This document shows positions 4,596 to 61,870 of a stretch of 64,000 bases of DNA, piece after piece (the first letter of the stretch is position 1; each line of letters opens with the position of its first letter). The stretch is from contig JBAZKE010000003.1 of NCBI GenBank assembly GCA_041650915.1, positions 21,226-85,225 on the forward strand, in the 5' to 3' direction. The translations under genes were made by a program, and so were the position numbers. The DNA comes from Patescibacteria group bacterium. GTDB lineage: Bacteria; Patescibacteriota; Patescibacteriia; UBA10025; JAHIVO01. The notes under the pieces were generated by a model. The model did not search any database. It was not told where the DNA came from and saw only the letters and a program-made list of their open reading frames with translations.

Positions 4596-4656
4596 CGGCA
4601 GCGGGAACAGGCGACTTGGATTAATTTTCACCTTTTTTGCTATCAGCAGACGCAAT

Positions 4657-42804: not shown

Positions 42805-45800
42805 ATGCCAAAGGCGACTAAAAATTTACTCTTCATCCTTACCATCGCCACTGCGGCTGCGGTGCTCGGCGGCGGGCTGCTCTGGCTCGGGTATGCGCTC
42901 GTGCGCGAGCCTGCCGGCTCAGTGCCCGTCGCGGTCGCGGAAGACCCCGAGACGCTCATGGATGAGCAGGCCGAGCAGGGGGCGATCAACTATACGCATG
43001 CGGATAACGGAGACGGCACCTCGACGATGACGTTCTCGCTTTTTGATACGCAGTACCTGGCCGACGATGGCGCGTACGCGCCCATCAGTACGGAGGTCCT
43101 GGAATCAGCGGGCGACTACGCGTTTGAGAATACCGAGAACATATTCAAGACGCACTTCCGCGGGAGCGCTGCCGTGGACAGCGCCGTCGAATTCGCGATC
43201 GGCGAGCGGTCGGTGGGCATCAGCTTCGTCGGCGCCAGCGAATCCGCGCCCGTCGCAGCGGGAAACACGGTCACGTACCCGGGCGTGTATGGCGGCATGG
43301 ACGCCCGGTACACGCTCCTCCCGGAGCAGCTCCTCGAAGAGCTCATCGTGACCGAGCAGGTAGAGGTCAGCCGCATCAGCCAGAAGCTTATCCTGAGCAA
43401 CGTGTACTACAAAGAGCAGCCGGACGGTTCGCTCACTTTCCATGATGCAGACACCAGGCGGATCGTGTGGTATACACCGGCTCCGGTCATGTATGAGATT
43501 CCGACCGAGGAAAACAGCGAGGCGGGCTCGAGCTCCGCCCTCCACTACGAGGTGGAAGAGGTTGAAGGCGGCTTTATCGTGCACAAGGTGATCGATGCTG
43601 AGGGTATCGAGTGGCTCAAGGCTGCTTCGTACCCGCTCGTGATCGACGGAACATTTACCCGTGACACCTGGCCAACCTCGTCGGGCTCAATGTATGGGGA
43701 GATTGCGTGGGAGGATCCGTTGTGGACGGTCGACCCTGGAGGCAGAAGTTTTTGGACAGAGGGTTACAATTGGGAGCAGATGGCGTACGTTACCTTCCTG
43801 CAGGACGGGACGATCGAGCGCCGGGCATACTTAGTGTTTGATACGAAGAGGCTGCCGGATTCGATATGGCCGATACAAGCAACGCTCCAGGTGCGCAACC
43901 TTCAAAATAATTTTTACGGAGAAACGTGGCGTGATGACGAGTATTACATGGGCGCTTTCGCATGCCAGTACGGGTGGTACGTCCTCGGCTCCGACGATTG
44001 GGAAGGGTGCAAACGCTTGACAAGTGACATTACTAATGAGGATGACGACAGCGTTGAGCTCGTGGATAACTGGCCTAGTCATGCGTGGCATACGTTTAAC
44101 CTCAATCCGGAATCAATCGGTGCGGATGTATGGACCAACGTCGTGCTCGATACGTACCGCGTCGGAAATCTTGACGACAATAATTACGAGCGCAGTATGG
44201 TAGTCGGCGTCGGCCCGAATGCCGGCCCGACTTCCGGGCCCGACATGTGGGCGTATGCGCCAATACTGACGGTCACGTACAAAGGCCCGCCCCCGCCGCC
44301 AAACCACTTTGAGATCACCGGCAATACGCAGACGAGCGTTGCGCTCGAGTGGCAGGATGAGAGCACGACCGAAGACGGGTGGATCATCCAGTACGGCCCC
44401 ACTGCAGCCGGGCCGTGGACAGACCTGTGCCATCCGCATACGGGCAGCGGTTCTATCCCGAGCACGGGCGTTTGCGTCGACTTCAGCTCGGATTGGGACT
44501 GCGATATAGAGGTAACGAAGGCGGGGAGCGGCGACGATACGCCAGCTGACCCGGACGACTATATGTGCCGCCTGACGCACACCCCCCTTTCGCCGAATAC
44601 GCACTACTACTACCGGATCGTGACGTACGAGCCTGCACCTTTTGGCGAGAACGGCGCTGTGTTCTCGTCGGTCAACCGCAGGAGCGTCACCACCTCGCAT
44701 CTCAATGCGAGTGGCGAGCTGTACATCGGCGGTTCACGGTTGGCGAATGGCGAGACGCACGGTGCGCTCGAGCGGCGCCGGTCCATAAACGGGCGACTCG
44801 ACCGCACGTTTGCCAACCTGCAGGGCGATGTGGCGTGCTGCGACACGGCAGGGTGTGCGGGATATGTTGATTCCGGACAGGGATGGATTCTCTTCAACTG
44901 GGATACTTTTTGGAGCTTCAATACGATTCTCGACATTCCGAGCGGCGCCGGCTCAATACAGCCCGATCTGTACGCGCTCGGCGGCGCACACTGGGATTAC
45001 GATAAGCTCATGCGTTTTGACACCATGAATGACCACGAGGGAGAGTGGGAGTGGAAAAACTCAGTGAACTGGGGAGCGTACCAGTCCAAGATGTTTCCCA
45101 TATTGGAGGAAAACACGCTCATCGTAACCGGCGCCCGTGAAAATTATAATGCTTCTTATCCTACTTTGGGCTGCGGCCGGACCGGGTACTGCTGGAAGGT
45201 CAAGGCTCAGCTCATGCTGAAGTCCTGCAGTGCGACGCTCGGGTACCGTTATGACTGGGACTACAGCGCGACAGGCCTTAATGGGGATGGCTACTACAAT
45301 GGCGAGATGTGGGTGCCGGCTGGCCAGAATCTGTACGATAGCGTATCGGACGCGGACTATATGTACCTCGCCGGCACGCCGTATGGCCTGGCGGACGGGT
45401 ATCTCCGGAAGCACGATAAGTACACCGGGTACCTGTGCAACGGGACTGACGCGAACCATTGCGGCATCGGGAACGGGTGGGGCGACGCAGACTCCGGCAC
45501 GATCACGATTCCTGAGAGCAGCGGTATCAGATACCTCGCGATTGATAGTACGAGCCTGTATTTGCTCGGCTCCCGTGACGATGGCATCTCCTGGCAGATT
45601 GAGAAGCGCAGCCTGGCTACGGGTGACCGCGTGACCGCGTTCAGCGGAGATGGCGTCTTTGTCTCTATTATGGGTTCACCTTCACCGTCGGACATCATTG
45701 TCGATAATAACTACCTGTACGTTATCGGCCGAGAACGGCCCTCGAGCATCTACCAGTGGCGCATCGAGAAGTACGACAAGAACACGGGTGACCGCTGCGA

Positions 45801-48800
45801 TGGCGGGTCCGGGCACTGCGGCAATGTCGAATTCGGGTCAAGCGGCATCATTTCATTCAGCAGCGATGTGGCAGGTGATGCGTATACGCCGGTGTCAATC
45901 GAGCAAGACGATAACCACCTCTACATCTCTGGAGTAGCGAATTCATCGTACACTGCGTGGCGCATTGAGAAGCGCGTCAAAGATACCGGTGCACTCGGTA
46001 ACAAGATGGATATTCTCCACGGGGCGTCGCAGTTCGGAATCCACGACGACTGGTCATATCCGGAAGACGCCTGGACGCTCGCCGAGGCGGTTGCGGCACC
46101 CCCGGTATTTGTCGATCCGCAGCCGGACAATTCCGAGGTGCACGTACTGTATGAGAACGGCGGTTCAGCAGGCCCGGGCAGGTTCCCGGACGATCCGCTC
46201 GACGGCGATCCGGGCACGACCCAGTACTGCCTCGGGCTCTACATCGAGGACTGGCCGGCGGATCCTGGTTTTGAGACGCCTCCGACGCCAGATACTTTTT
46301 TATCCATATGGAAAGACCTTGCGGCATACGGCTATTTTCCGCAGACGCTCATTGCTGGTACTGGCGGCTTCATGTGGTGGGGCCCTGTTTGTTATACGGC
46401 GGCCGAATGGCACGGTCTGCCGTTCTCATCCGTATACCCGCGGCTCGAAACCCCGATACGTGCGCCGCTCAATATGCTTGCTGACAGTACTGAGATCGCT
46501 CCGCTGCCTCCGGACCAGGAAATGACAGGCGCGTTTTTCGCGAAGAACGGAGACGGTGAGGTGGCGGACCCGCTGCCGAGCGGATGGGCTACCACGAGGA
46601 CGCGCGCCCGCAATCCTCTGCAGCCCCTCGCGACCGCGCTCGATGCCCATACGGTCCAGATTACGATGCGCAATAATAGTGCAGGATCGGTGTCTAGAAA
46701 TCCTGCGTGGACAGACTACGCACTCCAGAACGCAGATACCGGGCAGTATCTTGATCCGGCTACTGGTTTATTCGTAGACGATCTGCCAATCAACGAGGAC
46801 GATATTTGGTGCGACCTTTCTTCCCAAGAACCTGATAGTACGTGCAATTGGGGGTACCCGAGCCCTGACAGCGTTGGGACGGTCACGTTCAACAATGCGC
46901 AGCCTGCGCTGTGCTATGAATTGCGCGCAAAGTCGAGGAATAAAGATAAAGTCGAGGGTGAGTTTTGGGGCAGGTGCAATGAGTATATGACCGACGGAGG
47001 CGGATATACGTGCTGGACCGACAAGGCGTGCGTGCCGTGGAACTGCAATATCGAAAACCATACTACGTTTAATAATAGCCAACCGGCGCTCTGTGCATCT
47101 GAGGGCGGCGTCTGGGAGGAAAACTGGGATTCCGATTCGTGCGTTGATCAGAGTGATCCGGATTATGAAGACTGGTACAATTTAATATGGTCGACTTCAG
47201 TGAATGTATGCGTTCCATCCGCGCCCGCTGATGGCGTCAATGTCGAGTGCGGGTATGACGAAACGGACGGATACTACTGCGACCTGGGGATTATCGATAG
47301 TGAGAATCCGGCGAATTATTGTGAAGGTCATCCGGAATGCACCGATCAAGCCAGTTGCGAGAATGTCGCAGGGTGCAATTCTACCTGGCATGTCAGCGTG
47401 GTCTACGGAATACAATACTGCCTGGATAATGTGCCGCTCAGTGATTGCTTCAGCGTACCGGGGCACGGCTGGAATGATGCGGTTTTAGAAACGGACCAAA
47501 AGGTACACCGGTTTGCGTCAGAAACGCTGCAAACATGGCTCGCGTGCTCGCAGGAGAATAACGTGCAGGCATACCGCGTCCGTACGCGGGGGCAGAATGG
47601 AGTATGGTCTGCATACACTGCTCCGATCGAAGTGGACATCGGCAGCGGCTGGGATACGTTGCCTCCGTGCCCTGTCACCTGGGCAACGCCTCTGCACTCA
47701 GAAAATGCGGCGGATGGCTTTGGTTATAAAATTACCTGGCAGTGGCTCCAGCCTGACAATTGGGACGCCGACTGTTTGGATAAGGATTGCATGTACTACA
47801 ATTTGTATGATGATGCGATGCGGTGCGTCGTTGGAGGATCGGACGCAGTGCCTGATGCGGACGAGCTCTGCCCTTTGACGCCGCGGCCTTCCATTGCCGA
47901 CTGGATTGATCCGTCATTTTCGCAGTATATGTACTGTGATAACTTACTATGCACCCGGCTCCTGAAGCAGAATACGGAGTACGCTGCCCGCGTGCAGGCG
48001 GTGCGGGTTGATAGGTATAATGAAACGCAGCGCATCCGCGGCGGCGAGCCCACGTGGTATATGAAGCCGTTTGAGGAGTATGCGACCGTTTATACTTCCA
48101 TTGACGCGCCTGCCGGCATAACATTCAATAATGACGGGCTGTCAGCGGAAACGTTGCTTATGCGCTGGACAGGGCTGCTCGCAGGAGTCAGCCAAGCCGA
48201 CTACCGCGGCGAGTCCGGCGTGAAGTACTACCAGACGCTCGAAGGCGCTCCGGACAATATAGGCGATCCTGCTTTTATGGGATTCGTGAAAGACGGCGAT
48301 CCGGCCGTTTGGCTCGATATATGGGATAGTGGCCTGATGCCGAACCGCAAGTACTGCTACCAGGCCGAGGCATGCAATGGCGACTGCGATATACTCGGCG
48401 ATCCCACTGATGTGAGCGCGCGGTCTCCGGTAGCGTGCCAGTATACGCTTGCTGACCAGCCGGCGCAGCCCGTGCTCCGCCGAAATGAGGGGGAGACCGA
48501 AATCACCCTTAGCATCCGTACGAATGCCGATGACCGCAATTCCCACGGCGAGTTCATTGACCCGTACCAAAATCCGGATACTGACTATGCGCTGTGCGTG
48601 ACCAGCTACGATGATATCGGCAATAAGGTCTGGTCGCACTACGCAGACCCGAACTGGGATGCGGGAGACACTACGACCGCATTCATCGATAAGAGCTTTT
48701 GCAGCGATCCGGCGTGCGATAATGAGGCAGACTGCCTCGGATCCGGCCCTGGGCAGTGCAGTGAACTCGTGCTGCAGACCTGGACCGAGCGCCCGACCTG

Positions 48801-51800
48801 CGACGTGGATAATTCGGCCTACGATGAAGATGCCGAACCGCAGCACTGGGCGACGTACAGCGAATGGAATGGTGTGGATGGCGTGCTGATTGACCTCGTT
48901 ACCGCAGGCAAGTACGACTTCATGTTCAAGGCGCGGAACGGCGATAACGGCAACTGTTCAGAGGGGATCAACGAGTGTACGTTAACTGACTTTGGCCCGC
49001 CAGCGACGCTCTTTCTCGTGCGGAATAACGTTGTCGGCTGGGCATGGTCCTCTACCGCCGGCTGGCTGTCCCTCAACTGCCTCAACTTTTACTCTGAGCC
49101 GAGCCACGGGTACAGCTGCAACCGTGCGGCTGACTGGGGGCTCAACACTGCGTTTGCAGCGTCACGCACGATAAATCCGCTCGAGGGGTATGCCTGGTCT
49201 TCTTCAGGGCAGAACCTCGAGAGCGTGTGGTCTGATGCGGTTAACCTGAGCCAGTCGGGTACCGGCACCACACCCGGCACGATCACGCTTGACGGGAACG
49301 GCAATCCGCACGTCGCGTGGTGGGATATCGACGGGTACTATTGCAATAACGATAGAATAACCGCCTGCACATCGGACGCCCAGTGTCCGGGGTCGTTCTG
49401 CCAGTCGCACGATGTCATCAGCTACCTCAGGTGGGATTCGGGATCGAAGCAGTGGGTTGACTACGACTACGCCATTGACAGCAATCCGCGCAACCACACC
49501 GCCGTGCCGGCGCAGATGCTCGTGGACCAGGGAGCCCGCTGCTTGCTCCAGGAGAGCGCTATCAGCCTGCAGATTGATTCTCAAGGCCAGCCGCACCTGC
49601 TCTGGAAATACGTGCACTGTTCAAACAGCACCCAGCCGGTACTGTACCAGTACTGGGATAGCGGTTCGGGCGCGTGGAAGTACTACGGGGCTAACGGAGT
49701 CGTGCCGGTGTGGTACGGCCCGGCCATGGTGCTCGATGCTGAGGACCGGCCGCACGTTGTTTCGAAGTATGAGGCAGGCGGCGGCAACCCGAATGGAATA
49801 CAGTACCGGTACGGCGATCCGGCGACCGAGCAGTGGTATACCGTTACCGGCGACCTCGGAACCGACCATCTGCGGCTCGACGATTCGACGCGGAGTATCG
49901 GTGATTACGCAACACCGACTATTGCGATAGATTCAGGCGGCAATCCGCACGTTGCGTGGGGAGCTGGCGGGAACGGCGATGCGCTGTACCGCAAGTGGGA
50001 TGGCGAACATTGGGTTACTGCCTCTGGTGCATACGGGAATGGGGATGCTGACGAGGATTTCAATGTTACGCAGGTAAATCCAGCGACGGAAGAAGTGAAG
50101 CGCCCCGTACTCAAACTCGACTCCAATGATATCCCCTACATAGCGTTTAACGGATTGCGCGATGGCGTTGGCATGCGCCGCGCGTACCTCAAGACGTGGA
50201 TACCGGAAAAAGGCGAGTGGGGAACCATGGCCGGCGATACGTCGCCTGAGCTTGTTGGCGAAGCCGTGATGGTGTCGCCTGCCGGGGCGGTGTACTACGA
50301 TGGGATGGCGCTCGATATTGGCGCGGGCGACGTGCCGTACGTCGGATGGGCAGCCGGTGACGGCGAAGCGCACGCCCGCCGGTGGAGCATTGACCAGCGC
50401 GCATGGGTTACCGTATCTGGCGACGCCGGAACAGAAAATGAAAACTACTCCCAAAGTGCCGAGTTCTCCCGCTATCCGCTCATTGCGGTATCTGGCGAGG
50501 GCGTCGTGCATACGATCTGGCGTGATGAGGCGTCGACCGGCGCCAATGAGTGCAGCTGGAACCATGACAGCGCGTGCATTGCGCAGCCTGACTATCCGTA
50601 TTGCATGAATGAATGGCCTACCAATGACTGTACCGGATCAGATATCTACTACCGCGCGTGGGGCGATATCGCTGATAATATCGGGCTCGGATGGGTCAGC
50701 TTCTACCGGGGAACCTGCACTGACAACGCACAGCGCGCCTGCATTGTTGATGCAGACTGCGATGAGGGCACGTGCGAGCCGAGTGCGGTCAAAGAGCTCG
50801 GTGATCCGCTGCCAGACGGCAGCATGGGGTATGGATTCTGCTATACGGCATCCGATGGGGTCCGGTACGGCACGTGTGCGATCGATACGGTAACGCCGTG
50901 CGAGGTGGACAGCGATTGCCCGACAGAGGATGACTCATGCGTGCACTATACGTGCAGCGAGGATTCGACCTGCCGGAATGACACGCCGGCGAGCCCGCCA
51001 ACAAGCCAGGAGCTGTGCCGTCCGGTGGCGACCGCATACCTCAATGGGTCAACCATGGCGGTCGAAGGCTGGGCGCGGGTACTGGCGCTGAAGGAGGAGG
51101 GAGAATCCCAGGGCTTTGATGACTGGGGATGGGTTAAGCTCAATGGAACGTACAACGACGGCGCTGGAAATGCCGGCCCGTACAGCTTGACGGCTACTGA
51201 GGTTGATTCGCAGCAGTTCCTCGGGGATCCTGATGTCAATCCGAACGACGTTTCGCTGTACAGCCTGTTCGGCTGGAGCTGGAGCGCCGAAACATCGAGC
51301 TATACTCCGGCAGATTCTCGCTGGCTCGAACGGGAAAATGTTTCCGGGGACGGTCTGTCGCACTACTACTATAAAGATCGCGATTCATCGATGGTACTCG
51401 ACCGTGACGGCAATCCGCACGTCGCGTGGTCTTCTTACAATGCGGATGAGCAGCGGTACAGCATTTACTATGTCCGGCAGCAGAGCGGCCATTGGGTCAC
51501 GGCCACTGGCGAGGAGTACGTGCCCGGCACGACCAATCCGGCATCATCCAAGCTCGACGTGGGCATTGCCGCAGGGCTGCTGCCGCCATCAGATACGGAC
51601 GACCTCAGATCACCGTCGCTCGCCATCGATGTTTCCGGCCGGCCGCACGTCGCACTCCAGAAAGCAGGCTCAGCCACCGAGGACGGCACGGTCTACTACA
51701 CGTATTGGAACGGGACGGATTGGGCAGCGGGATCGTGCATTGACGGCCGCGCCTGCCCGAATGCGTATGACGGCATCGGTGCGCTTGGCGCACAGCAGCC

Positions 51801-54800
51801 GACCCTGCAGCTCGATGCAGCCACTGTCCCCCACGTTGTATACCGGCGCGGAGAGTATGCCGGATATGGCATTTACTACGTGCGTTTGAATGGCGGCCTG
51901 TGGGAGCCGATCAATGGTAATCCGGCGAACCTGAACGTAGCGGCAAGTTCGACAGGAGAATGCTCGGGCAATCCAAGCCTGCCATGCCTCACCGACGCAG
52001 AGTGTGCGGGATCGGGGGGGATATGCTGGCACCGTGCGTATGATCCCGAGTTCCGGCTCCAGGATGGCGTGCCGCATGTCCTGTGGATTCAAAAGATTTT
52101 CGGGGGGACAAACCAGGTCTACTACCGCTGGTGGGATGAGGTCAATGGCGTCTGGTCTGATGCTGACGGCGGGGCAGATATGTTCAATACCGTTTCGGTG
52201 ACGCAAGGCCTCGCCGGCATTGGCAATATCCCGAATCCCGCGGTTCCCGAAGTGCCGTCGCTCGCGCTGTTTTCTGACGGCAGGCCTGCAGTCGCGTGGC
52301 GCGATCCGGATTACATTATATTCCGCCAGTGGGATGGCGCCCAGTGGGCCGATATCAATCCGGGTGACGGATCCACAACGGATGACCTCCAGCTCAACTC
52401 GTCCCTGGGGCACGCTTACGCAGGCGGCGAACCGTACGTTATGGTCGATGCGGATGACCACCCGCACGTGCTGTGGGGAGATGACTATAGCGTTACACAG
52501 AATCCCCATATTTTCTACCGGCGGTGGGATCCTGCGGAAGGCCCGGCAGGGAGCTGGGTAACGGTCGACGGGAACGCGGCAGATGCCGCCGACACCCCTC
52601 ACTATAGGGTTTCGCCGATCGGGAGCGATTACTCCATCAGCCCGATCTCAATGCTCGATGCGATCGGCAATGCGCACGTGCTCTGGACTGAGGTAACGCG
52701 AGGTGCCGAGGGCTGCGGCTTTGGTTACGACGGCGTACTGACCTCACAAGACGGAGACAGCGATTTTGAAGACGTGGTGCTTGATTCTACCGGGACGTAC
52801 CTCTATGCTGCCGGCACGGACGCAGATGAGTTCCTGGTGGAGAAGCGCAGGGCTGATACGGGGCTCCCGTGTTCAGCTACAAACTGCGGCACCGAGTTCG
52901 GCACCAATGGTGCCATACTGTCGGCAGGCATGCCAGGAGGCGATGGCGTTGCGTACGCTGTCGGGCTCGATGAGCGCGAGGGCAGCCTGTACGTTGCTGG
53001 CCGTGCGGTAGGCGGTGGCGGTTTCCAGTGGATTATCTACAAATTCGATGCGGGTACCGGGGCGCTCTGCACGGGCGGTGTGTGCGGCGCGGCAGAGAAT
53101 TTCGGTGCAGCCGGGTATATACAAATAGCGAGTACGTACGCGTACTATGGCATGGACATGAAAATAAACGACGGATTCATGTACCTTTTTGGATCAAAGA
53201 ATATCTCACCGGATGTTAATGATTGGGTTGTCGAACGGCGGCATCTGACGAATGGGAGCTTGGTCGCAGATTCGTATGTCGGCGGATGGCAGGGCGGCCG
53301 GATCGAAATCCCCGCTGGTTATCTTGGCGCGGCTATTGTTATCGACGGACGTGATATGTACATCGCAGGCTCTGATGATGACGATGACGGCGTCGGCGGA
53401 TCCGACACATACGATTGGCGGATTGAAAAACGCTCTGCGTTCTCCGGGCAGCTCGCCAGCGCATTTGGCGCGGGCGGCGTATGGACCGGGCCTGGTGCCG
53501 GAGATGCGGTCAATAGTTATAAAATCAATGATTTGGAAATAGCCGGAGATGCGCTCTATGCTGGCGGGTTTGTGGATGTCGAGGATTGGCTTACCGCCAA
53601 ATTCGATAAAAATACCGGTGCGCTCGATACTGCTTTTGGCGGTGACGGATTTGTGCAAGGCCCAGAAGTAACGAAAAAGGTTTACGGCATTACGGCTGGC
53701 GGTGACGGCCTGTACGTCGTCGGCTGGTCAAACGACAATTGGAGGTATGAGAAGTTGGATTTGAATACGGGCGCAAACATTGCAACGGGAGACTACGCGG
53801 GCGGATGGCAGGGAGGCGTTATCGAGGAAACGTGGGGAGATGCGGCGAGCGTCGCCCGAGAGATCGTGCTCGATGATCGGTATATGTATGCAGTGGGGTC
53901 CAGTGATGAGCGCGGAAGCGTTGCTGATTGGCGCATTGAGAAGCGCTACCGCGATACCGGCCAGCTTATCACGGAGCGGAATGAGAACTGCGCTGATCCA
54001 TTGCTCCCGACCTGTTTAGAAACGGGCTGGGCAAATCCTCCCGACTGGAACATCACGTACCCAGACGGCACGTCCGTCAGCAGGTGTTCGGCCGTCACTA
54101 TGAGCTACGCGCAATGGGCGCCGGGCGCGGTGCATGCCGGGCTCGGGTGGATCGAATTCATGCCGGCTGGCGCGCTGCTCGGCATTCCGTGGGTGCAGAC
54201 GATGTTCAGCGATATCTATGCATCCGAAGCGATCGCGCTCTCACCGCCGCCGCGCGGCACGGGCGGATATACGAGCACGTTCCTCATCCTCGCGGGCGAG
54301 GAGGGCGATACGATTACCGGCATACCCGGCTACTATTCCGGAGCGCAGACCGGCGCGCCGACGAGCAGCTACTACGAGCCCGGCTTCGATCCGCTCATCA
54401 CAGGCGCGGGCAATCCGCTCGGCGAAGACGTTCTCGACCGGCTCAATATCAGCGGTCTTGTTGCGGAGACTGCCACGGGGAGCGGTTACAACCAGTATGG
54501 GCATCCGCTGCGGATTGATTCGAGCGAAGGCACGGTCGACATCAGCCAGAGCGCTTCGTTCGGCGGCGACCCGTCGGATATCACGCTCGACGGCACGGTA
54601 TACTATTTCAGTTCAGCCAACCCGACAACGCGGTACGTGATCGGACGCGAGATGACCTTCAAGGCCGGATCCGAACCGGCAGGTACCGCAGGAGACGGGC
54701 TCATCGTGATCGACGGCGACCTGGAGATCAACCGTGATATTCTGTATGAGGAGCGCGACCTCGCCGATATCAGCGAGATGCCGTCGGTAGCGATTGTCGT

Positions 54801-57660
54801 ACGGGGCAACGTGTACATCAGCCCGTTCGTGAGCGAGCTCGCGGGTGCGTACGTGGCGGTTGACGATCCGCAGACCGCAGAAGCCAGCGAAGGCATTATC
54901 CATACAGGCCGGCAGCAGCCCTTCGTGGCCGCGATCGCCGCTTCGGCGGATGATACTTCTATCGCAAACGATGCCTATGCGAATGATACAGGCGCTATCC
55001 AGCAGGCTTTCGGGCAGAGCGAGGCGGGCGTGGACAGCCGCAGCTTTATACGGTGGCAGCTCGACATCCCCGCCGGCGCGGAAATTCGCGATGCATACCT
55101 CAGATTGCACGCCGACGATTCAGCCAGTGCTACCCTCGATCCGTTCAGCGCCAAGATACGGCTCATCGATTCGGCCGATGCGTCGGGCATCGATTTCACA
55201 GCAAATCCGAATGCGGGGCTCTACGGCATCGCGACGGGTAACAGCGTCAGTTACCCGATCAGCAGCGCCACGTGGCAGTACGGTGCGGTCAACGAGACCC
55301 CGGACATTTCTGCGCTCATACAGCGGTTCATCGACGATTCCGCGTACGTTCCGGGCGCGAGCATGGTCGGCATTGCGATTGACGAGGGTGATGCAGGCAC
55401 CGGAGACATCGTGAGTTTTTATTCGTACGATTACTACCAGGCGAATCCCGTATCAGAGCCCGATTATGTTCCTGAGCTCGTAATCGAGTACTCGCCCCAG
55501 CGGACGGTGTATACGATTGATAATGAGAGCTTGGGCGGTTTCGGCTCCGGTGGCGTTGCCGACACGGATTATGAAATGTACAATTATAAGCTCGCCGTGG
55601 ATGAGCCGAATAACGCGCTTTATGCCGCCGGGGTATTTCGGTGGCTTCAGCCGCCTTCTGCGTGGCACTACGATTGGCGTATCGAGAAGCGCACCCTTGA
55701 TACGGGCGAGCTCGACACTACCTTTGGCATGGGCCAGTGCATAGCAGATCCGACATACTATTGCCACGTTAATGCTGACTGTCCGCACAATGATTGCAAT
55801 GCAGCCCCGACCGGCATTATCAATCTGGGAGGAATCGCTGGCTATGCGTACGATGTTCACGTTGATGATAATTTTATCTACGTCGCTGGGAGTAGGGGAG
55901 GGTCTCGTATAACAAAGTACGATAAAGCAACCGGCGCTCTCTGCACCGCCGGCGCGTGCGGTGCGGGCGAAGACTTCGGCACGGGGGGATACCAGTCTGT
56001 TACTATATCGTTCAGCGGGGGAGCAAACATATTGGGCGTCGATAGTAATTTTATATATGTTAACGGCTACTATACGTCAGGAGGGACGCGCATGCGTACC
56101 GCAAAGATCAGCAGAGCAACCGGTGCCCTGTGCACTGGCGGCGCGTGCGGCGCGGGCGAAGACTTCGGCACGGGGGGATACCGTGACTCATCGCTCACCA
56201 CAACGTACGGGTACGGTATTGCGGTAGATGGAGAATTTATCTATACCATAGGGCGCCGCTACATTTCGACTCCGACCACGAATTGGATGCATCTCGAGAA
56301 GTACGAAAAGCATACCGGCGCCTTGTGCACCGCCGGCGCGTGCGGCGCGGGCGAAGACTTCGGCGCGGGCGGCATGCAGGATTTCCCTTCGGCAAATGCG
56401 CAAGCCTACGGCCGTGCCATTACCGTGTCCGGCGATGTGCTCTTTGCAGCTGGGTACACCACGGGGTTTGATTTCCTGACCGCAAAGTACAATAAGCATA
56501 CCGGCGAGCTGTGTTCCATACTCGGAGGCTGTGGCGTTCACCAGGATTTTAACTTTCAGGGATATGTCATATCCACAAACGGAAGGCTGGTGTATGACGT
56601 TGCCGCTGACGCTGAGTATGTGTACGTTGCGGGCTTATCAGATATGGGTGCGAGCCAGTATAACATGTACGTCGAACGGTATACCCACAGCGGGCAGCCG
56701 GAGCCGTTTACCGGCCATGCCACGAACGCAATCGTCGAAACGAACGGGCGGCAAGCCTATGCGGTTAAGCTCGACAGCAGTGCGATGTACATCGGCGGAT
56801 TTTCCTATGTTGGTTCGGTTAACCGCTGGATGATTGAGAAGCGGGATCGGTTGACTGGGGATCTCGTTGGCAGTGGAGCGAATGAAGCCGCATCCTGGGG
56901 CAGCACCGATCCGCAGGACTGCGATACGAACGCAGAATGCGACTACGACCCGGTCTGCATGAATTTTGGTAGGTACAAGGGCAATCCGAACAGAGTATTC
57001 CTCAGGTTTGCGCCTCCTCCAGCGGATGACCCCGATTATACGCAGCTGCCTGCCAGTGCAGAAATTATCAATGCACAGCTCAAGGTTACGGGGCGGAATG
57101 AGAGTCCGGCGTGCTTTGACGCCACGGATACGGGCGCTGACGCCTTGCAAGGCAGGATTGGGCTTTTGAGCGGGGTCGATATCGCATCATTCGGCTGCAA
57201 CCCGAATGTGCCGTCATGCGTATCAATGAGCCAGGAGGTATCCGAAGTGACGTGGGATATCGCTGCAGGCGCGTGGGCTGACGGCACGGAATACCTGCTT
57301 CCGGCTGATATCGCGAGCCTGGTGGATGCGTGGGTTGATCTCGGCAGCCATCAGCCTGAGCACCACATCGGGCTGCGGGTGCGCCGCGGTACGAACGAAA
57401 CCGACGCGGATGACGGCGCCTCGCGCGCGCTCTACCAGGAGGCGGCGTTGCCCGGAGCATCCGAGCTCGTCGTCGACTACCAGATGCCGCTGCTCGTCAA
57501 CGGGCTATTCGTAGCGGAAGGCTATAGCTTCGACCGGAAGTACACGAAGAACCTTGCTGCGTCAGAACAGATACTGTATGATGGGAGAGTCGTAGCCAAT
57601 ACGCCACCCGGACTTTCTGATTTTACCGAGGCGCTGCCGATTTACGACAGGGTGCCGTAA
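42805..57660 (+). CDS. Giant membrane-anchored surface protein (4951 aa). FN3 domain, multiple beta-propellers (delta-60-like WRIEKR...TG.LD..FG repeats and PHVxW repeats), Cx2DADC knots.
   Basis: A 14.9-kb uninterrupted ORF. N-terminal TM LLFILTIATAAAVLGGGLLWLGYAL. FN3 PPNHFEITGNTQTSVALEWQDE. More than 15 WRIEKR/K..TGALCT.G.CG...FG repeats. More than 12 (N/R)PHV(A/V)W repeats. CLTDAECAGSGGIC, CIVDADCDEGTC and similar. Confidence 0.8.
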   Translation: MPKATKNLLFILTIATAAAVLGGGLLWLGYALVREPAGSVPVAVAEDPETLMDEQAEQGAINYTHADNGDGTSTMTFSLFDTQYLADDGAYAPISTEVLESAGDYAFENTENIFKTHFRGSAAVDSAVEFAIGERSVGISFVGASESAPVAAGNTVTYPGVYGGMDARYTLLPEQLLEELIVTEQVEVSRISQKLILSNVYYKEQPDGSLTFHDADTRRIVWYTPAPVMYEIPTEENSEAGSSSALHYEVEEVEGGFIVHKVIDAEGIEWLKAASYPLVIDGTFTRDTWPTSSGSMYGEIAWEDPLWTVDPGGRSFWTEGYNWEQMAYVTFLQDGTIERRAYLVFDTKRLPDSIWPIQATLQVRNLQNNFYGETWRDDEYYMGAFACQYGWYVLGSDDWEGCKRLTSDITNEDDDSVELVDNWPSHAWHTFNLNPESIGADVWTNVVLDTYRVGNLDDNNYERSMVVGVGPNAGPTSGPDMWAYAPILTVTYKGPPPPPNHFEITGNTQTSVALEWQDESTTEDGWIIQYGPTAAGPWTDLCHPHTGSGSIPSTGVCVDFSSDWDCDIEVTKAGSGDDTPADPDDYMCRLTHTPLSPNTHYYYRIVTYEPAPFGENGAVFSSVNRRSVTTSHLNASGELYIGGSRLANGETHGALERRRSINGRLDRTFANLQGDVACCDTAGCAGYVDSGQGWILFNWDTFWSFNTILDIPSGAGSIQPDLYALGGAHWDYDKLMRFDTMNDHEGEWEWKNSVNWGAYQSKMFPILEENTLIVTGARENYNASYPTLGCGRTGYCWKVKAQLMLKSCSATLGYRYDWDYSATGLNGDGYYNGEMWVPAGQNLYDSVSDADYMYLAGTPYGLADGYLRKHDKYTGYLCNGTDANHCGIGNGWGDADSGTITIPESSGIRYLAIDSTSLYLLGSRDDGISWQIEKRSLATGDRVTAFSGDGVFVSIMGSPSPSDIIVDNNYLYVIGRERPSSIYQWRIEKYDKNTGDRCDGGSGHCGNVEFGSSGIISFSSDVAGDAYTPVSIEQDDNHLYISGVANSSYTAWRIEKRVKDTGALGNKMDILHGASQFGIHDDWSYPEDAWTLAEAVAAPPVFVDPQPDNSEVHVLYENGGSAGPGRFPDDPLDGDPGTTQYCLGLYIEDWPADPGFETPPTPDTFLSIWKDLAAYGYFPQTLIAGTGGFMWWGPVCYTAAEWHGLPFSSVYPRLETPIRAPLNMLADSTEIAPLPPDQEMTGAFFAKNGDGEVADPLPSGWATTRTRARNPLQPLATALDAHTVQITMRNNSAGSVSRNPAWTDYALQNADTGQYLDPATGLFVDDLPINEDDIWCDLSSQEPDSTCNWGYPSPDSVGTVTFNNAQPALCYELRAKSRNKDKVEGEFWGRCNEYMTDGGGYTCWTDKACVPWNCNIENHTTFNNSQPALCASEGGVWEENWDSDSCVDQSDPDYEDWYNLIWSTSVNVCVPSAPADGVNVECGYDETDGYYCDLGIIDSENPANYCEGHPECTDQASCENVAGCNSTWHVSVVYGIQYCLDNVPLSDCFSVPGHGWNDAVLETDQKVHRFASETLQTWLACSQENNVQAYRVRTRGQNGVWSAYTAPIEVDIGSGWDTLPPCPVTWATPLHSENAADGFGYKITWQWLQPDNWDADCLDKDCMYYNLYDDAMRCVVGGSDAVPDADELCPLTPRPSIADWIDPSFSQYMYCDNLLCTRLLKQNTEYAARVQAVRVDRYNETQRIRGGEPTWYMKPFEEYATVYTSIDAPAGITFNNDGLSAETLLMRWTGLLAGVSQADYRGESGVKYYQTLEGAPDNIGDPAFMGFVKDGDPAVWLDIWDSGLMPNRKYCYQAEACNGDCDILGDPTDVSARSPVACQYTLADQPAQPVLRRNEGETEITLSIRTNADDRNSHGEFIDPYQNPDTDYALCVTSYDDIGNKVWSHYADPNWDAGDTTTAFIDKSFCSDPACDNEADCLGSGPGQCSELVLQTWTERPTCDVDNSAYDEDAEPQHWATYSEWNGVDGVLIDLVTAGKYDFMFKARNGDNGNCSEGINECTLTDFGPPATLFLVRNNVVGWAWSSTAGWLSLNCLNFYSEPSHGYSCNRAADWGLNTAFAASRTINPLEGYAWSSSGQNLESVWSDAVNLSQSGTGTTPGTITLDGNGNPHVAWWDIDGYYCNNDRITACTSDAQCPGSFCQSHDVISYLRWDSGSKQWVDYDYAIDSNPRNHTAVPAQMLVDQGARCLLQESAISLQIDSQGQPHLLWKYVHCSNSTQPVLYQYWDSGSGAWKYYGANGVVPVWYGPAMVLDAEDRPHVVSKYEAGGGNPNGIQYRYGDPATEQWYTVTGDLGTDHLRLDDSTRSIGDYATPTIAIDSGGNPHVAWGAGGNGDALYRKWDGEHWVTASGAYGNGDADEDFNVTQVNPATEEVKRPVLKLDSNDIPYIAFNGLRDGVGMRRAYLKTWIPEKGEWGTMAGDTSPELVGEAVMVSPAGAVYYDGMALDIGAGDVPYVGWAAGDGEAHARRWSIDQRAWVTVSGDAGTENENYSQSAEFSRYPLIAVSGEGVVHTIWRDEASTGANECSWNHDSACIAQPDYPYCMNEWPTNDCTGSDIYYRAWGDIADNIGLGWVSFYRGTCTDNAQRACIVDADCDEGTCEPSAVKELGDPLPDGSMGYGFCYTASDGVRYGTCAIDTVTPCEVDSDCPTEDDSCVHYTCSEDSTCRNDTPASPPTSQELCRPVATAYLNGSTMAVEGWARVLALKEEGESQGFDDWGWVKLNGTYNDGAGNAGPYSLTATEVDSQQFLGDPDVNPNDVSLYSLFGWSWSAETSSYTPADSRWLERENVSGDGLSHYYYKDRDSSMVLDRDGNPHVAWSSYNADEQRYSIYYVRQQSGHWVTATGEEYVPGTTNPASSKLDVGIAAGLLPPSDTDDLRSPSLAIDVSGRPHVALQKAGSATEDGTVYYTYWNGTDWAAGSCIDGRACPNAYDGIGALGAQQPTLQLDAATVPHVVYRRGEYAGYGIYYVRLNGGLWEPINGNPANLNVAASSTGECSGNPSLPCLTDAECAGSGGICWHRAYDPEFRLQDGVPHVLWIQKIFGGTNQVYYRWWDEVNGVWSDADGGADMFNTVSVTQGLAGIGNIPNPAVPEVPSLALFSDGRPAVAWRDPDYIIFRQWDGAQWADINPGDGSTTDDLQLNSSLGHAYAGGEPYVMVDADDHPHVLWGDDYSVTQNPHIFYRRWDPAEGPAGSWVTVDGNAADAADTPHYRVSPIGSDYSISPISMLDAIGNAHVLWTEVTRGAEGCGFGYDGVLTSQDGDSDFEDVVLDSTGTYLYAAGTDADEFLVEKRRADTGLPCSATNCGTEFGTNGAILSAGMPGGDGVAYAVGLDEREGSLYVAGRAVGGGGFQWIIYKFDAGTGALCTGGVCGAAENFGAAGYIQIASTYAYYGMDMKINDGFMYLFGSKNISPDVNDWVVERRHLTNGSLVADSYVGGWQGGRIEIPAGYLGAAIVIDGRDMYIAGSDDDDDGVGGSDTYDWRIEKRSAFSGQLASAFGAGGVWTGPGAGDAVNSYKINDLEIAGDALYAGGFVDVEDWLTAKFDKNTGALDTAFGGDGFVQGPEVTKKVYGITAGGDGLYVVGWSNDNWRYEKLDLNTGANIATGDYAGGWQGGVIEETWGDAASVAREIVLDDRYMYAVGSSDERGSVADWRIEKRYRDTGQLITERNENCADPLLPTCLETGWANPPDWNITYPDGTSVSRCSAVTMSYAQWAPGAVHAGLGWIEFMPAGALLGIPWVQTMFSDIYASEAIALSPPPRGTGGYTSTFLILAGEEGDTITGIPGYYSGAQTGAPTSSYYEPGFDPLITGAGNPLGEDVLDRLNISGLVAETATGSGYNQYGHPLRIDSSEGTVDISQSASFGGDPSDITLDGTVYYFSSANPTTRYVIGREMTFKAGSEPAGTAGDGLIVIDGDLEINRDILYEERDLADISEMPSVAIVVRGNVYISPFVSELAGAYVAVDDPQTAEASEGIIHTGRQQPFVAAIAASADDTSIANDAYANDTGAIQQAFGQSEAGVDSRSFIRWQLDIPAGAEIRDAYLRLHADDSASATLDPFSAKIRLIDSADASGIDFTANPNAGLYGIATGNSVSYPISSATWQYGAVNETPDISALIQRFIDDSAYVPGASMVGIAIDEGDAGTGDIVSFYSYDYYQANPVSEPDYVPELVIEYSPQRTVYTIDNESLGGFGSGGVADTDYEMYNYKLAVDEPNNALYAAGVFRWLQPPSAWHYDWRIEKRTLDTGELDTTFGMGQCIADPTYYCHVNADCPHNDCNAAPTGIINLGGIAGYAYDVHVDDNFIYVAGSRGGSRITKYDKATGALCTAGACGAGEDFGTGGYQSVTISFSGGANILGVDSNFIYVNGYYTSGGTRMRTAKISRATGALCTGGACGAGEDFGTGGYRDSSLTTTYGYGIAVDGEFIYTIGRRYISTPTTNWMHLEKYEKHTGALCTAGACGAGEDFGAGGMQDFPSANAQAYGRAITVSGDVLFAAGYTTGFDFLTAKYNKHTGELCSILGGCGVHQDFNFQGYVISTNGRLVYDVAADAEYVYVAGLSDMGASQYNMYVERYTHSGQPEPFTGHATNAIVETNGRQAYAVKLDSSAMYIGGFSYVGSVNRWMIEKRDRLTGDLVGSGANEAASWGSTDPQDCDTNAECDYDPVCMNFGRYKGNPNRVFLRFAPPPADDPDYTQLPASAEIINAQLKVTGRNESPACFDATDTGADALQGRIGLLSGVDIASFGCNPNVPSCVSMSQEVSEVTWDIAAGAWADGTEYLLPADIASLVDAWVDLGSHQPEHHIGLRVRRGTNETDADDGASRALYQEAALPGASELVVDYQMPLLVNGLFVAEGYSFDRKYTKNLAASEQILYDGRVVANTPPGLSDFTEALPIYDRVP

Positions 57661-57675
57661 CGAAGCATAAAAAAC

Positions 57676-58878
57676 ATGGCGAAGAAACTATCATATTTGG
57701 GGGTAGACCTGAGCGGCTCAAGCATCAAGATCGTTGAGCTTGTTGACATTGGCGGCAGGTCGCAGCTCGTTACGTATGGTTTTGCAGAGGGTGTTCCGAG
57801 CATTATTAAAGACGAGAGCGTGGAAGCGCGGCATGAAGTCGCGAATCACGTTAAAGATGTATTAAAACAGTCGCGCATGTCGAGCCTCAGGGTCGTAACC
57901 GCACTGCCAAACTTCAGCGTATTCAGTTCGCTCATCAGCCTTCCTGCGATGAGCAAGAAGGAGCTCATTTCCGCTGTACGGTGGGAGGCGAAAAAGTTCG
58001 TGCCGATCCCGCTCGAAGAGATGATTCTGGACTGGGAGGTCCTGTCGGGGGATGCTGAGCAGCACGCCGCACCGGGCAGCGCGAAGGGGATGCTGGAAAA
58101 AAAGAATCACGCGGGGGATCTGCAGAAGAAAGATGGGGGCAAGGCATCGCGGGATGGTTTTCCCGGCGGTGGCGGAGGAGATCCGGAGAGCGGTTCTAGT
58201 GATGAGCAGGCGTCAGCCCGATTGAAGGAAGCGAAGGCCAGCATTAAAGTTCTCCTGACGGCAGCGCCAAAAAATTTGGTGAACCGGTACGTTGAGCTCT
58301 TCAAGGAAGCGGGCGTGCAGCTCATCGGCCTGGAGACGGAATCTTTCGCGCTCGAGCGCGCTCTCATCGGCAACGACCAGAATCCGGTTATGATTATCGA
58401 TATTGGCAATGAAGCCGCAAGCCTCACTATTTTTGCGCGCGGCGTGCCGATCCACAACCGCAGTATCGATATCGGCGGCACTACCATAACGAAGGCGGTT
58501 GCACAAGCAACCGGGCTTGCCGAGGAACACGCCGAGCAGTTCAAGCGCGATATGAACGGTTCGCTTGATGACGAGTCGGTAGAGAAGCTGCCCCAGCAGG
58601 TTAAGTACGTCGTGCACTCTGTCGTCAATGAAGCGCGCTACATTATAAACTACTACGAGCGCCAGAATAAGCAGAAGGTCTCGAAGATTATTTTAACTGG
58701 AGGCTCTTCATACTTCATGGACTTGCCTGACTATCTGCAAAAAATCTTCAATATCAAGACATACATCGGAGATCCGTGGGCGCGGGTAATCCACCCCGTT
58801 GAAATCGATTCGTTGCTCAGGCAGCTCGGTCCGCGGCTTGCCGTGTCAGTCGGCTTGGCGATGCGTGAAATTGTATAA
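57676..58878 (+). CDS. pilM: Type IV pilus assembly protein PilM (actin-like ATPase) with a Gly-rich insertion.
   Basis: LGVDLSGSSIKIVEL and IIDIGNEAASLTIF (actin-fold phosphate motifs). A ~60-aa insert rich in GGGGGDPESGSSDEQ. Confidence 0.8.
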   Translation: MAKKLSYLGVDLSGSSIKIVELVDIGGRSQLVTYGFAEGVPSIIKDESVEARHEVANHVKDVLKQSRMSSLRVVTALPNFSVFSSLISLPAMSKKELISAVRWEAKKFVPIPLEEMILDWEVLSGDAEQHAAPGSAKGMLEKKNHAGDLQKKDGGKASRDGFPGGGGGDPESGSSDEQASARLKEAKASIKVLLTAAPKNLVNRYVELFKEAGVQLIGLETESFALERALIGNDQNPVMIIDIGNEAASLTIFARGVPIHNRSIDIGGTTITKAVAQATGLAEEHAEQFKRDMNGSLDDESVEKLPQQVKYVVHSVVNEARYIINYYERQNKQKVSKIILTGGSSYFMDLPDYLQKIFNIKTYIGDPWARVIHPVEIDSLLRQLGPRLAVSVGLAMREIV

Positions 58879-61282: not shown

Positions 61283-61870
61283 ATGAAGTTTGCAATCGTA
61301 AAGAGGGATCTGATACGGATTTTCACGAAGTACTTCGTGCTGATTTCGGTAATCACGACGCTGCTTATCATCGGCGCTGGCTACCAGCTGTTTATCAAGG
61401 GCACGGTCGCCGACATCAGGTCCATCGGCGTGATCGATCTGAAAGAGCGCGAGCAGCAGAAGCTCAACCTGATAGATACGCTCGAGCGGCTCAAGCGGCT
61501 CGAGACCCGGTACAATGAGCTGACGTATGAGGAAATCAAGCAGCTTGAGTACCTCTTGCCTGATGAGCGTGAGATTCCCTATATCGTTATTGAGCTGAAA
61601 GATTTTATCGCTGCGAACGGGCTCGTGCTTAAGTCGATCGACGTCGGCGTGTTCAAGGCTGCTGTCGGTGAAGAGGAAGAGGAAACGAAGGCAGTGAGCT
61701 TGAAGAGCCTCAACGTAACGGTAACGATCGAAGGCCTCGACACGTACGCGCAAATCAAAGATTTTCTGGATAAGCTCGGCACGCTCATGCCGCCATTTGA
61801 ACTCAATTCATTTTCCTATGCACCGGACAGGACGAGCTACAGCCTGAACCTAACGACGTACTATAAGTAA
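61283..61870 (+). CDS. pilO: Type IV pilus assembly protein PilO.
   Basis: N-terminal TM plus a coiled coil. Position and size (195 aa) directly after pilN, with a 4-nt spacer. Confidence 0.65.
   Translation: MKFAIVKRDLIRIFTKYFVLISVITTLLIIGAGYQLFIKGTVADIRSIGVIDLKEREQQKLNLIDTLERLKRLETRYNELTYEEIKQLEYLLPDEREIPYIVIELKDFIAANGLVLKSIDVGVFKAAVGEEEEETKAVSLKSLNVTVTIEGLDTYAQIKDFLDKLGTLMPPFELNSFSYAPDRTSYSLNLTTYYK

Follow-up and report, generated by a model that had tools for sequence, protein, structure and literature searches.

A 4951-residue propeller-array protein encoded directly upstream of pilM in a Patescibacteria group bacterium: a candidate type IV pilus-associated adhesion platform and its family

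Introduction

Much of bacterial diversity belongs to the Patescibacteria. They live in attachment to other microbes, and little is known of how they choose and grip their hosts. To our knowledge, type IV pili are the sole attachment system that has been shown experimentally to matter in the Saccharibacteria. We have analysed 64,000 nt of DNA from a Patescibacteria group bacterium (GenBank assembly GCA_041650915.1, contig JBAZKE010000003.1, positions 21,226 to 85,225 of the forward strand), here called the window, and within it a gene for a 4951-residue surface protein, here called the giant, which lies directly upstream of pilM and which we are inclined to regard as a pilus-associated platform for host adhesion. 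An earlier note, made from the sequence of the window, had described the product as a giant anchored protein built from stacked propeller repeats.

Several described systems bear comparison with this locus. ComZ, a pseudopilin-like protein, carries a large triangular beta-solenoid of the ice-binding protein (IBP) type and has been argued to sit with PilA2 at the pilus tip; its N-terminal helix is non-canonical and is not a predicted PilD substrate (PMC6561018). Cyanobacterial PilX has the same type of solenoid and has been proposed to replace the 'plug' of PilY1 (bioRxiv 10.64898/2026.02.12.705559). In TM7x, binding to the host through pili needs PilX2, a protein with a 7-blade propeller whose signal is non-canonical; pilus locus 1, as delimited in that study, starts at pilM1 and takes in no gene upstream of it (PMC12206443). 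Giant membrane proteins are a known theme in genomes of the candidate phyla radiation (CPR) (PMC8080830; PMC6851277).

In the literature that we searched we found no description of a Patescibacterial solenoid-tail family or of a conserved giant upstream of pilM. What was already known comprises the giant membrane proteins of CPR genomes and the solenoid pilus-tip proteins of Thermus and cyanobacteria. What is new is a protein, Sec-exported or anchored and with no recognisable pilin character, that has a constant solenoid at its C-terminus and has grown to 3-5 thousand residues by exchangeable propeller cassettes.

Results

The fixed place of the giant upstream of pilMNO-pilB is the main clue to its function. 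As can be seen in Table 1, pilM is followed in the window by a PilN-position gene, a PilO-like gene and pilB, so that the giant has the pilM-N-O…pilB neighbours of a type IV pilus locus; pilM starts 15 nt beyond the stop codon of the giant, and the genes around the giant are spaced by 3-15 nt. A genome scan, which took one genome per species and used alignment of the tail only, gave 15 true loci, and in all 15, including one from the Saccharibacteria, the family gene was immediately upstream of pilM. In these loci pilM was found 0-1.3 kb downstream and was followed by pilB; one contig ended just past pilM. A further scan match, from a thaumarchaeote (L025; E 4e-4 over 31 residues), was discarded as spurious. 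The same position upstream of pilM was observed in the window and in two further loci, L006 and L007. Contigs L004 and L009, which we also compared, are L018 and L019 of the scan, and the two sets overlap to that extent. At L007 the family member is a protein of 1180 residues (P0006), and the order of genes is LemA, a small gene, four large proteins, the family member, pilM-N-O and pilB, with a response regulator, pilT, pilC, a pilin and PilD past pilB.

An exhaustive profile search with the C-terminal region of the giant returned 6040 matches at E<=1e-3 and 1637 at E<=1e-10, and the giant scored 1061.9 bits against the profile of its own family. Members range from ~355 to 5073 residues. About 24 are full-length giants (2404-5073 residues) with the C-terminal module at the extreme C-terminus, and these share the N-terminal anchor and a DUF7948-like domain, colinear with the giant. 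Many others are small (355-600 residues), with nothing beyond a signal peptide, 'GWAWS..GWISF' motifs and the module and tail without interruption. All homologues were from Patescibacteria, one of them on a 1.31-Mb chromosome of Ca. Kerfeldbacteria, which supports the earlier assignment of this DNA to a lineage of small-genome episymbionts. These proteins form a lineage-specific family, marked out by the C-terminal module with its tail and by the place of the gene directly upstream of pilM, for which we use the name 'pilM-upstream solenoid-tail proteins' of Patescibacteria.

Two sets of records require comment. Four metagenome-assembled genomes (MAGs; L010, L011, L020 and L021) are titled 'uncultured Gammaproteobacteria bacterium', yet both the family gene and the operon are of Patescibacteria type, and the taxonomy of these records is probably wrong. 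In a Ca. Saccharibacteria MAG, an open reading frame (ORF) of 1243 codons (L023:6470-10198), directly upstream of pilM, has the same module and tail ('…YYDGRVVANTPPGFGTF…'), so that the family extends to the one class of Patescibacteria that is open to genetics. Among the few matches of a word-indexed protein search there was no Nanosynbacter entry.

The N-terminal part of the C-terminal module, which is non-repetitive, reads 'GLGWIEFMP..PPPRG..YTSTFLI…GDGLIVIDGDLEIN…PSVAIVVRGNVYI' in the giant and 'GLGWIEFMP…PPPRG..YTSTYLI…GNGLIVIDGDLEIN…PS.AIIVRGN.YI…EG.ISTGR' across homologues, in which it is followed by DNRLRE-like domains and then by the tail. The tail is 'PLLVNGLFVAEGYSFDRKY…EQILYDGRVVANTPPGLSDF..LP.Y.RVP' in the giant and 'PL.V.GLFVA.GYNFDRKY…E.I.YDGRVVANTPPGLSDF..LP.Y.RV.P' in homologues, where it forms the very end of the protein. 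There are 31 invariant columns in the tail among 10 orthologues, 35 diverse members all have the G and R of YDGR, and the giant ends on the family pattern '…F.F.R.Y…E.I.YDGR..AN.PPG..DF..LP'. No Pfam or NCBIfam model covers the module; its modelled fold is a triangular IBP-like beta-solenoid, of the ComZ-like or PilX-like type.

The module of the giant is interrupted by two DNRLRE-like domains, which small family members lack. Domain 1 scored 20.1 bits with NF033679 (DNRLRE; cutoff 34) and 13.1 bits with CBM96 (cutoff 26), below both thresholds, and was modelled by AlphaFold2 (AF2) with a predicted local distance difference test (pLDDT) of 70-85; domain 2 was assigned through its homology to domain 1 in the profile. 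Other large insertions, which follow or interrupt the module, were noted from sequence reading: P0031 (4945 residues) combines the module with an apparent subtilisin-like protease region and long Cys-rich repeats, P0025 (4484 residues) carries a Cys-rich block, and P0020 and P0021 have an apparent laminin-G/concanavalin-like insert. Across the family, the module seems to be a hot spot for domain insertion.

At the other end of the giant, the predicted transmembrane (TM) anchor of the earlier note is present as the hydrophobic run at residues 8-33, preceded by K3/K6, and in orthologues this position is taken by hydrophobic runs of 22-28 residues. This helix is without a prepilin cleavage motif, without Gly-1 and without Glu5. 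The prepilin motif G[FM][ST]L[IL]E was absent from every frame of the window, and neither N_methyl (PF07963) nor T2SSG matched the giant. The giant thus lacks the class III signal peptide of type IV pilins and pseudopilins, which rules it out as a canonical pilin; the same signal is missing from ComZ and PilX-type proteins (PMC6561018, PMC12206443). A C-terminal sorting signal (sortase, PEP-CTERM or other) was also rejected, there being no TM helix or basic tail after the motif.

The domain that follows the anchor is covered by nearly all orthologues. PF25778 (DUF7948) matched 12 of the 18 orthologues, with a best E of 1.2e-7, and reached only 16 bits in the giant (cutoff 27); a profile of the domain found nothing meaningful among PDB sequences. 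Next is the FN3 domain of the earlier note, which we retain as an FN3-like match below the family thresholds (fn3, E 4.7e-4 and 20.8 bits, cutoff 25; Pur_ac_phosph_N, 28.3 bits, cutoff 30; PDB FN3con, E 0.02). The Cys-rich middle region had no Pfam or NCBIfam match at E<=1. The first GW motif is common to all orthologues and small family members, and the second GW/Cys-knot segment is kept in P0001, P0002 and all orthologues.

Along the whole protein, then, the two ends (anchor with DUF7948-like domain; solenoid with tail) are the most conserved parts, and the middle consists of shuffled cassettes. This pattern argues that the solenoid and tail have a partner which is constant and encoded by the cell itself, and that the propellers have variable external ligands.

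The cassettes are of two kinds. With a hidden Markov model (HMM) seeded from 'W.IEKR' motifs and iterated on the giant, we found 18 solid WRIEKR units of ~60 residues (47-65), with domain E values of 1e-13 to 1e-23, in agreement with the more than 15 claimed earlier. They lie in three arrays: A1, with 4 units and degenerate ones upstream, and A2 and A3, with 7 each. A1 is probably one propeller, to which a reading of its motifs would assign 7 blades. The A2 cassette is found in most orthologues and is missing in some (it is present in P0001 and absent in P0002). A3, three blades of which carry 'TGALCT.G.CGAGEDFG', is unique to this genome and, relative to 5 homologues, is a clean insertion between the two DNRLRE-like domains. 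The giant is the only protein with three WRIEKR arrays among the 24 orthologues, which have 0-1 full array each, of 7 blades (6 detected in one fragmentary case), with a few partial extras. A second local HMM found 13-14 PHVAW blades over arrays B1 and B2, where the earlier note had counted at least a dozen. PF15892 (BNR_4) scored 39.3 bits on residues 2820-3320, above its cutoff of 27.3, and 26.7 bits, just under the cutoff, on the whole giant; the PHVAW arrays can be classed as BNR_4-type blades. Orthologues (n=24) have 1-2 BNR_4 arrays per protein, of 5-7 blades. A fixed number of blades per array is expected of closed propellers, and whole cassettes, rather than single blades, appear to have been gained and lost across orthologues.

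The WRIEKR units had been called delta-60-like, and that label describes a resemblance in motif order only. They share with delta-60 (TIGR02608/DUF5122) and SBBP-type propeller repeats a tandem unit of ~55-60 residues with a G.LD..FG turn, the arrangement of units in sevens, and the order '…aromatic-x-hydrophobic-x-(K/R)-(R/Y)..(D/T)G.LD..FG..G…'. However, TIGR02608 scored 15 bits against a cutoff of 76.5 (E 0.016), on the A3 segment only, Pfam DUF5122 had no match at E<=1 on any segment of the giant, and the family of the giant has peculiarities of its own in its WRIEKR signature and its Cys-bridged 'TGALCT.G.CG' variant. A low-confidence AF2 model of residues 3752-4951 (7-sequence alignment, pLDDT 50.9), which we take as weak support for propeller blades, has 3-4 strands per unit, and every one of its best PDB matches is a propeller of 6-8 blades (plexin sema, BtuG, Sec12, prolyl oligopeptidase, PQQ dehydrogenase and YWTD).

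Cys knots recur through these regions, as had been noticed before. The 4-Cys pattern C-x5-10-C-x2-[DNST]-x2-C-x3-8-C occurs five times, at residues 2180, 2638, 2691, 3053 and 4312 (mean in 500 shuffles, 0.02), the first copy being in blade 1 of B1 (residues 2180-2199), and the strict Cx2DADC motif occurs three times. The same 4-Cys unit is found in the three large genes upstream. All of these repeat and knot counts are far beyond chance, and they support the earlier description of an anchored protein built mainly of propeller-type arrays.

The gene itself is genuine and intact. It has an ATG start and 4951 codons with zero internal stops, which bears out the single 14.9-kb ORF reported before; its start codon is 3 nt past the stop of the upstream gene, its N-terminus aligns residue for residue with those of orthologues, and an identical protein has been called on ENA contig k141_1347418 (273 kb). 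The earlier note had named a chimeric or collapsed ORF as the outcome that would undo its reading, and three observations could be taken to favour such an artefact, in which shorter genes were fused, or repeats collapsed or expanded: a contig of the independent Logan k-mer assembly (run SRR8542065) ends inside the gene, at residue 4511 in the GALC repeat region; most homologue contigs likewise end within the gene; and array A3 has no orthologue counterpart. Against this, the longest DNA repeat family in the gene is 88 nt at 76-83% identity, shorter than a read, and no tandem array was seen at the DNA level. A3 is only ~26% identical to A2 and is therefore not a duplicated read pile-up, and from residue 4511 onward the Logan contig agrees with the window at 100% identity for 4544 nt, across the junction between A3 and DNRLRE-like domain 2. 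All non-repeat segments are colinear with at least 20 orthologues of 3053-5073 residues from other assemblies, residues 608-831 and 4250-4600 being the only stretches without orthologue coverage. Finally, a homologous ORF is open over the full 10-kb upstream flank (at least 3397 residues) in 8 of the 15 scan loci, among them the complete Ca. Kerfeldbacteria chromosome CP181398.1 (1.31 Mb) and a 1.15-Mb contig, and two further scan loci have complete ORFs of 3244 and 3134 residues. The repeats fragment k-mer assemblies yet do not account for the ORF, and we find an assembly artefact hardly credible.

Table 1. Features of the giant gene and its neighbours in the 64,000-nt window (residue numbers are those of the giant unless stated).
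Feature	Position	Strand	Evidence
Upstream large secreted protein, 1048 aa	33191-36337	+	operon-like string of three
Upstream large secreted protein, ~1405 aa	36342-40559	+	operon-like string of three
Upstream large secreted protein, 742 aa	40573-42801	+	operon-like string of three
Whole gene, 4951-aa giant surface protein	42805..57660, stop codon included	+	single ORF
N-terminal hydrophobic helix, aa 8-33, read as signal-anchor	42826..42903	+	26-residue hydrophobic run
Conserved N-terminal domain, DUF7948-like, aa ~34-334	42904..43806	+	PF25778 in orthologues
FN3-like domain, sub-threshold, aa ~493-610	44281..44634	+	fn3, Pur_ac_phosph_N, PDB FN3con
Repeat array A1, aa ~623-1083, 4 clear 'W.IEKR..TG' units at 836-1083 and degenerate units upstream	44671..46053	+	local HMM
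Cys-rich middle region, aa ~1084-2077	46054..49035	+	colinear with orthologues
First GW module, 'GWAWSS..GWLSLNCLN', aa ~2078-2132	49036..49200	+	motif scan
Repeat array B1, aa 2157-2630, 7 'D..G.PHVAW...Y..W' blades	49273..50694	+	local HMM; BNR_4 22.7 bits
Second GW/Cys-knot module, aa ~2628-2831, knots at 2638 and 2691	50686..51297	+	motif scan
Repeat array B2, aa 2859-3303, 6-7 BNR_4-type blades, knot at aa 3053	51379..52713	+	local HMM; PF15892
Repeat array A2, aa 3314-3731, 7 'WRIEKR' blades	52744..53997	+	local HMM
C-terminal family module, N-part, aa ~3770-4050, ComZ/ice-binding-type beta-solenoid	54112..54954	+	
DNRLRE/CBM96-like domain 1, aa ~4060-4250, inserted in module	54982..55554	+	NF033679, sub-threshold
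Repeat array A3, aa 4255-4703, 7 blades	55567..56913	+	local HMM
DNRLRE-like domain 2, aa ~4720-4890	56962..57474	+	aligned with all homologues
Family tail, aa 4895-4951, last solenoid strands and invariant C-terminal peptide	57487..57657	+	column conservation
pilM	57676..58878	+	TIGR01175 E 1.4e-55; PF11104 E 4.5e-42
PilN-position protein, 728 aa, TM near its aa 570-590	59092..61278	+	position conserved in L004, L006, L007 and L009
PilO-like protein	61283..61870	+	PF04350 21.5 bits, cutoff 22; position conserved
308-aa TM-anchored protein, two FN3-like repeats, between PilO-like gene and pilB	61885-62811	+	
pilB (T2SSE ATPase), runs off window end	62822..64000	+	PF00437 E 2.1e-71; MshEN E 7e-13

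Several neighbours of the giant have features of their own. The PilN-position protein, which had no family match in Pfam or NCBIfam scans, has a presumably cytoplasmic, Pro/Ala/Lys-rich N-terminal extension of ~560 residues ahead of its single TM helix; its counterparts are of 591-735 residues in L004, L006 and L009 and of only 391 in L007. A gene for FN3-like repeats is not a usual component of type IV pilus operons; the one in the window has counterparts at the same position in L004 (384 residues) and L009 (303 residues, with faint fn3).

The three large upstream genes are on the strand of the giant, with gaps of 3-13 nt, and are preceded on the other strand by a 174-residue gene and LemA. 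Their products share a post-signal N-terminal motif ('W.EP..PP….YAP...G...Q.K.G…LDP'), a C-terminal motif ('C.DG.FIKGI.L….E…I.CR.L') and 'FDG.y.W' propeller repeats. An 'FDG..W' propeller also replaces the first BNR_4 array in several orthologues of the giant (P0009, P0010 and P0012 among them), which suggests cassette exchange among genes of the locus. The large upstream genes number 3 in the window and 4 in L007, which is reminiscent of a set of minor pilins, but they showed no pilin signature. For the second of the three, the GTG listed as start (36240) would place 98 nt of it within the preceding gene, and an in-frame ATG at ~36342 (MKKLFHNR…) is likelier.

Elsewhere in the window, a 500-residue protein with many TM helices (29154-30656, minus strand) has a C-terminal part ('…ARGKARDATRKSDISQLRTALTLYYDDYSRYP…') that resembles the alpha1-C and globular start of a pseudopilin (T2SSG 18.8 bits, cutoff 21); possibly, a polytopic membrane protein has here been joined to a pilin-like domain. 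Type IV secretion genes occur in the segment 13927-17934 (plus strand): one product is a P-loop ATPase of TraG/VirB4 type (PF19044, E 3e-27), and another has a T4SS_pilin domain (PF18895, E 1.9e-7). A conjugation-like type IV secretion system has reportedly been described for Patescibacteria (PMC12102498), and these genes fit it. A second string of very large genes (33-4595, 4531-7770 and 7774-9723, plus strand; 1520, 1079 and 649 residues) may be another surface-protein cluster. In the first, a dockerin type I domain was identified (E 2e-10) and CBM_4_9 matched weakly; the other two gave no family matches.

Discussion

The conservation pattern, the unvarying place of the gene in the pilus operon and the likeness of fold to ComZ together make a type IV pilus-associated host-adhesion platform, analogous to PilY1 and ComZ, the best supported explanation of the giant, and we hold it, with modest confidence, to be the probable one. 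By this explanation the protein (~530 kDa) would be held in the membrane by its single N-terminal helix, with the remainder extracellular. The conserved solenoid and tail would dock to a constant partner from the same cell, which could be the pilus tip or the pilus-priming or minor-pilin complex; docking of this kind has been proposed for ComZ and cyanobacterial PilX and, in functional terms, for PilY1. The variable part, made up of exchangeable 7-blade cassettes (WRIEKR and BNR_4), FN3-like and DNRLRE/CBM96-like domains and disulfide knots, would act as a multivalent surface that binds ligands, probably glycans, and so recognises the host cell. That the giant is physically associated with the pilus is something we infer. 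The multivalent binding platform suggested earlier was a reasonable reading, given the propeller-type arrays; what it had missed was the C-terminal solenoid module, the DNRLRE-like inserts and the fixed pilMNO-pilB neighbourhood.

A bolder version, which we think rather unlikely, is that the giant itself caps the pilus: its N-terminal helix, without Glu5 or a PilD site, as in GspK, PilX and ComZ, would enter the filament core as the first subunit, and the solenoid and tail would fold back onto the priming pilins. The pilus would then bear a half-megadalton, five-propeller 'grappling head', with exchangeable cassettes that set host range, and the giant would far exceed every known pilus-tip protein in size, which the lack of a secretin in these bacteria would allow.

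A number of points weigh against association with the pilus. The putative link between family and pilus is drawn from genes and fold likeness, and gene adjacency can reflect co-regulation without physical association. The ComZ likeness is structural only, since the sequence profile of the module had no meaningful match in PDB; the confident solenoid model is that of a homologue (28-48% identical pieces), not of the giant, whose own AF2 model is poor (pLDDT 50.9); and ice-binding solenoids score nearly as high as ComZ. Sequence comparison found no pilin fold in the giant, the N-terminal domain of which is DUF7948-like. The small members of the family have ordinary cleavable Sec signal peptides rather than pilin-like helices, and the module is therefore not tied to a pilin N-terminus. 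Also, it is hard to see how a protein of 530 kDa could be accommodated sterically at the tip of a pilus.

Some of these points fit a stand-alone surface adhesin or fibril, co-transcribed with the pilus genes for host attachment and not part of the pilus or its machine, in which the solenoid would be an adhesive or ligand-binding end domain (as in ice-binding and beta-helical adhesins) and the helix would merely anchor a stalk. The ordinary secretion of the small members and the missing pilin signature of the giant are in its favour, as is the abundance in CPR genomes of giant membrane proteins that are thought to bind hosts (PMC8080830). Yet an end that binds the host should vary with the host, whereas no part of the giant is better conserved than the solenoid with its tail, the rest being shuffled, and the synteny with pilM held in every locus examined, from Kerfeldbacteria-like genomes to Saccharibacteria. 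For these reasons we consider such an adhesin possible, but distinctly less probable than a pilus-associated platform.

Two further proposals give the giant another role beside the pilus. One would make it a surface enzyme complex that degrades or remodels glycans, cutting polysaccharide of the host envelope for pilus entry or feeding, with the BNR_4 (sialidase-like) propellers, the DNRLRE/CBM96-like domains and the beta-helix serving to bind and cut. BNR_4 does exceed its Pfam cutoff, DNRLRE/CBM96-like matches are present, and the distant match P0007 combines a DNRLRE-like domain with Beta_helix. However, the family scans turned up no catalytic family (active-site motifs were not searched for), the DNRLRE matches are sub-threshold and the propeller matches generic, and the best structural matches, ComZ and ice-binding proteins, are non-enzymatic; we judge this role improbable. 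The other would have the giant as an envelope-spanning scaffold or conduit, a machine part rather than an adhesin, that guides the pilus through wall and S-layer without a secretin. Its fixed position beside pilMNO, the conserved module and the absence of PilQ from these monoderm-like cells (PMC6851277) would suit such a part. Sizes of ~355 to 5073 residues, and the gain and loss of entire cassettes, are not what one expects of a machine component of fixed stoichiometry, though, and nothing points to formation of an oligomeric ring, so that we give a conduit very little credence.

If the giant is a pilus-associated platform, the family, which is conserved but unannotated, would unite a docking module that is constant and ComZ-like with an ectodomain that varies strongly and is assembled from cassettes, as one would expect if a determinant of host range were linked to an unchanging machine. 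Cassette content, compared across genomes, could then help to predict host specificity, and the Saccharibacteria homologue would make the family a testable target in cultivable relatives.

Among known systems, ice-binding proteins (DUF3494/IBP-1 fold) share the solenoid and differ in other respects: the giant has no Pfam Ice_binding match at E<=1, its context is not that of cold adaptation, and its module has an extra conserved tail and a GW-motif lead-in. The giant membrane proteins of the CPR, such as those of Vampirococcus lugosii (up to 4163 residues), are alike in being very large, membrane-localised products of reduced genomes, rich in propeller and beta-sandwich domains and presumed to recognise hosts. 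They have been described only as a class, and no conserved C-terminal module or fixed link to pilM is reported for them in the two studies consulted (PMC8080830; PMC6851277). Cyanobacterial PilX (including the HpsA-like PilX-EPS) and TM7x PilX2, which we compared by description only, are pilus-associated, have non-canonical signals and carry, respectively, a bulky IBP-like beta-solenoid and a 7-blade propeller, both being proposed or shown to act in adhesion and host binding; in contrast to the giant, they keep the pilin 'lollipop' fold and lie in minor-pilin clusters, not upstream of pilM.

The PilY1/PilC tip adhesins of Proteobacteria and Myxococcus are also large, Sec-exported, non-pilin proteins with a 7-blade propeller, encoded with pilus genes, and they too combine a conserved C-terminal domain, thought to dock on minor pilins, with a variable, adhesive N-terminal part. 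The giant is not a member of their family, no PilY1/Neisseria_PilC or vWA match being found with Pfam and NCBIfam on the whole protein and its segments. It is 4-5 times larger and membrane anchored, and its conserved C-terminal domain is a beta-solenoid instead of a propeller, the propellers being in the variable part. ComZ of Thermus thermophilus (PDB 6qvi), a DNA-binding protein of 554 residues, differs in that its solenoid is inserted in a GspK-like pseudopilin fold, and it has no similarity to the giant at the sequence level; the giant has no detected pilin fold, has ~3700 further residues of propellers and other domains, and has its solenoid split by DNRLRE-like domains and a propeller. 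What ComZ and the giant have in common is a triangular beta-solenoid, an N-terminal hydrophobic helix without a recognisable PilD site, and a gene in a type IV pilus locus.

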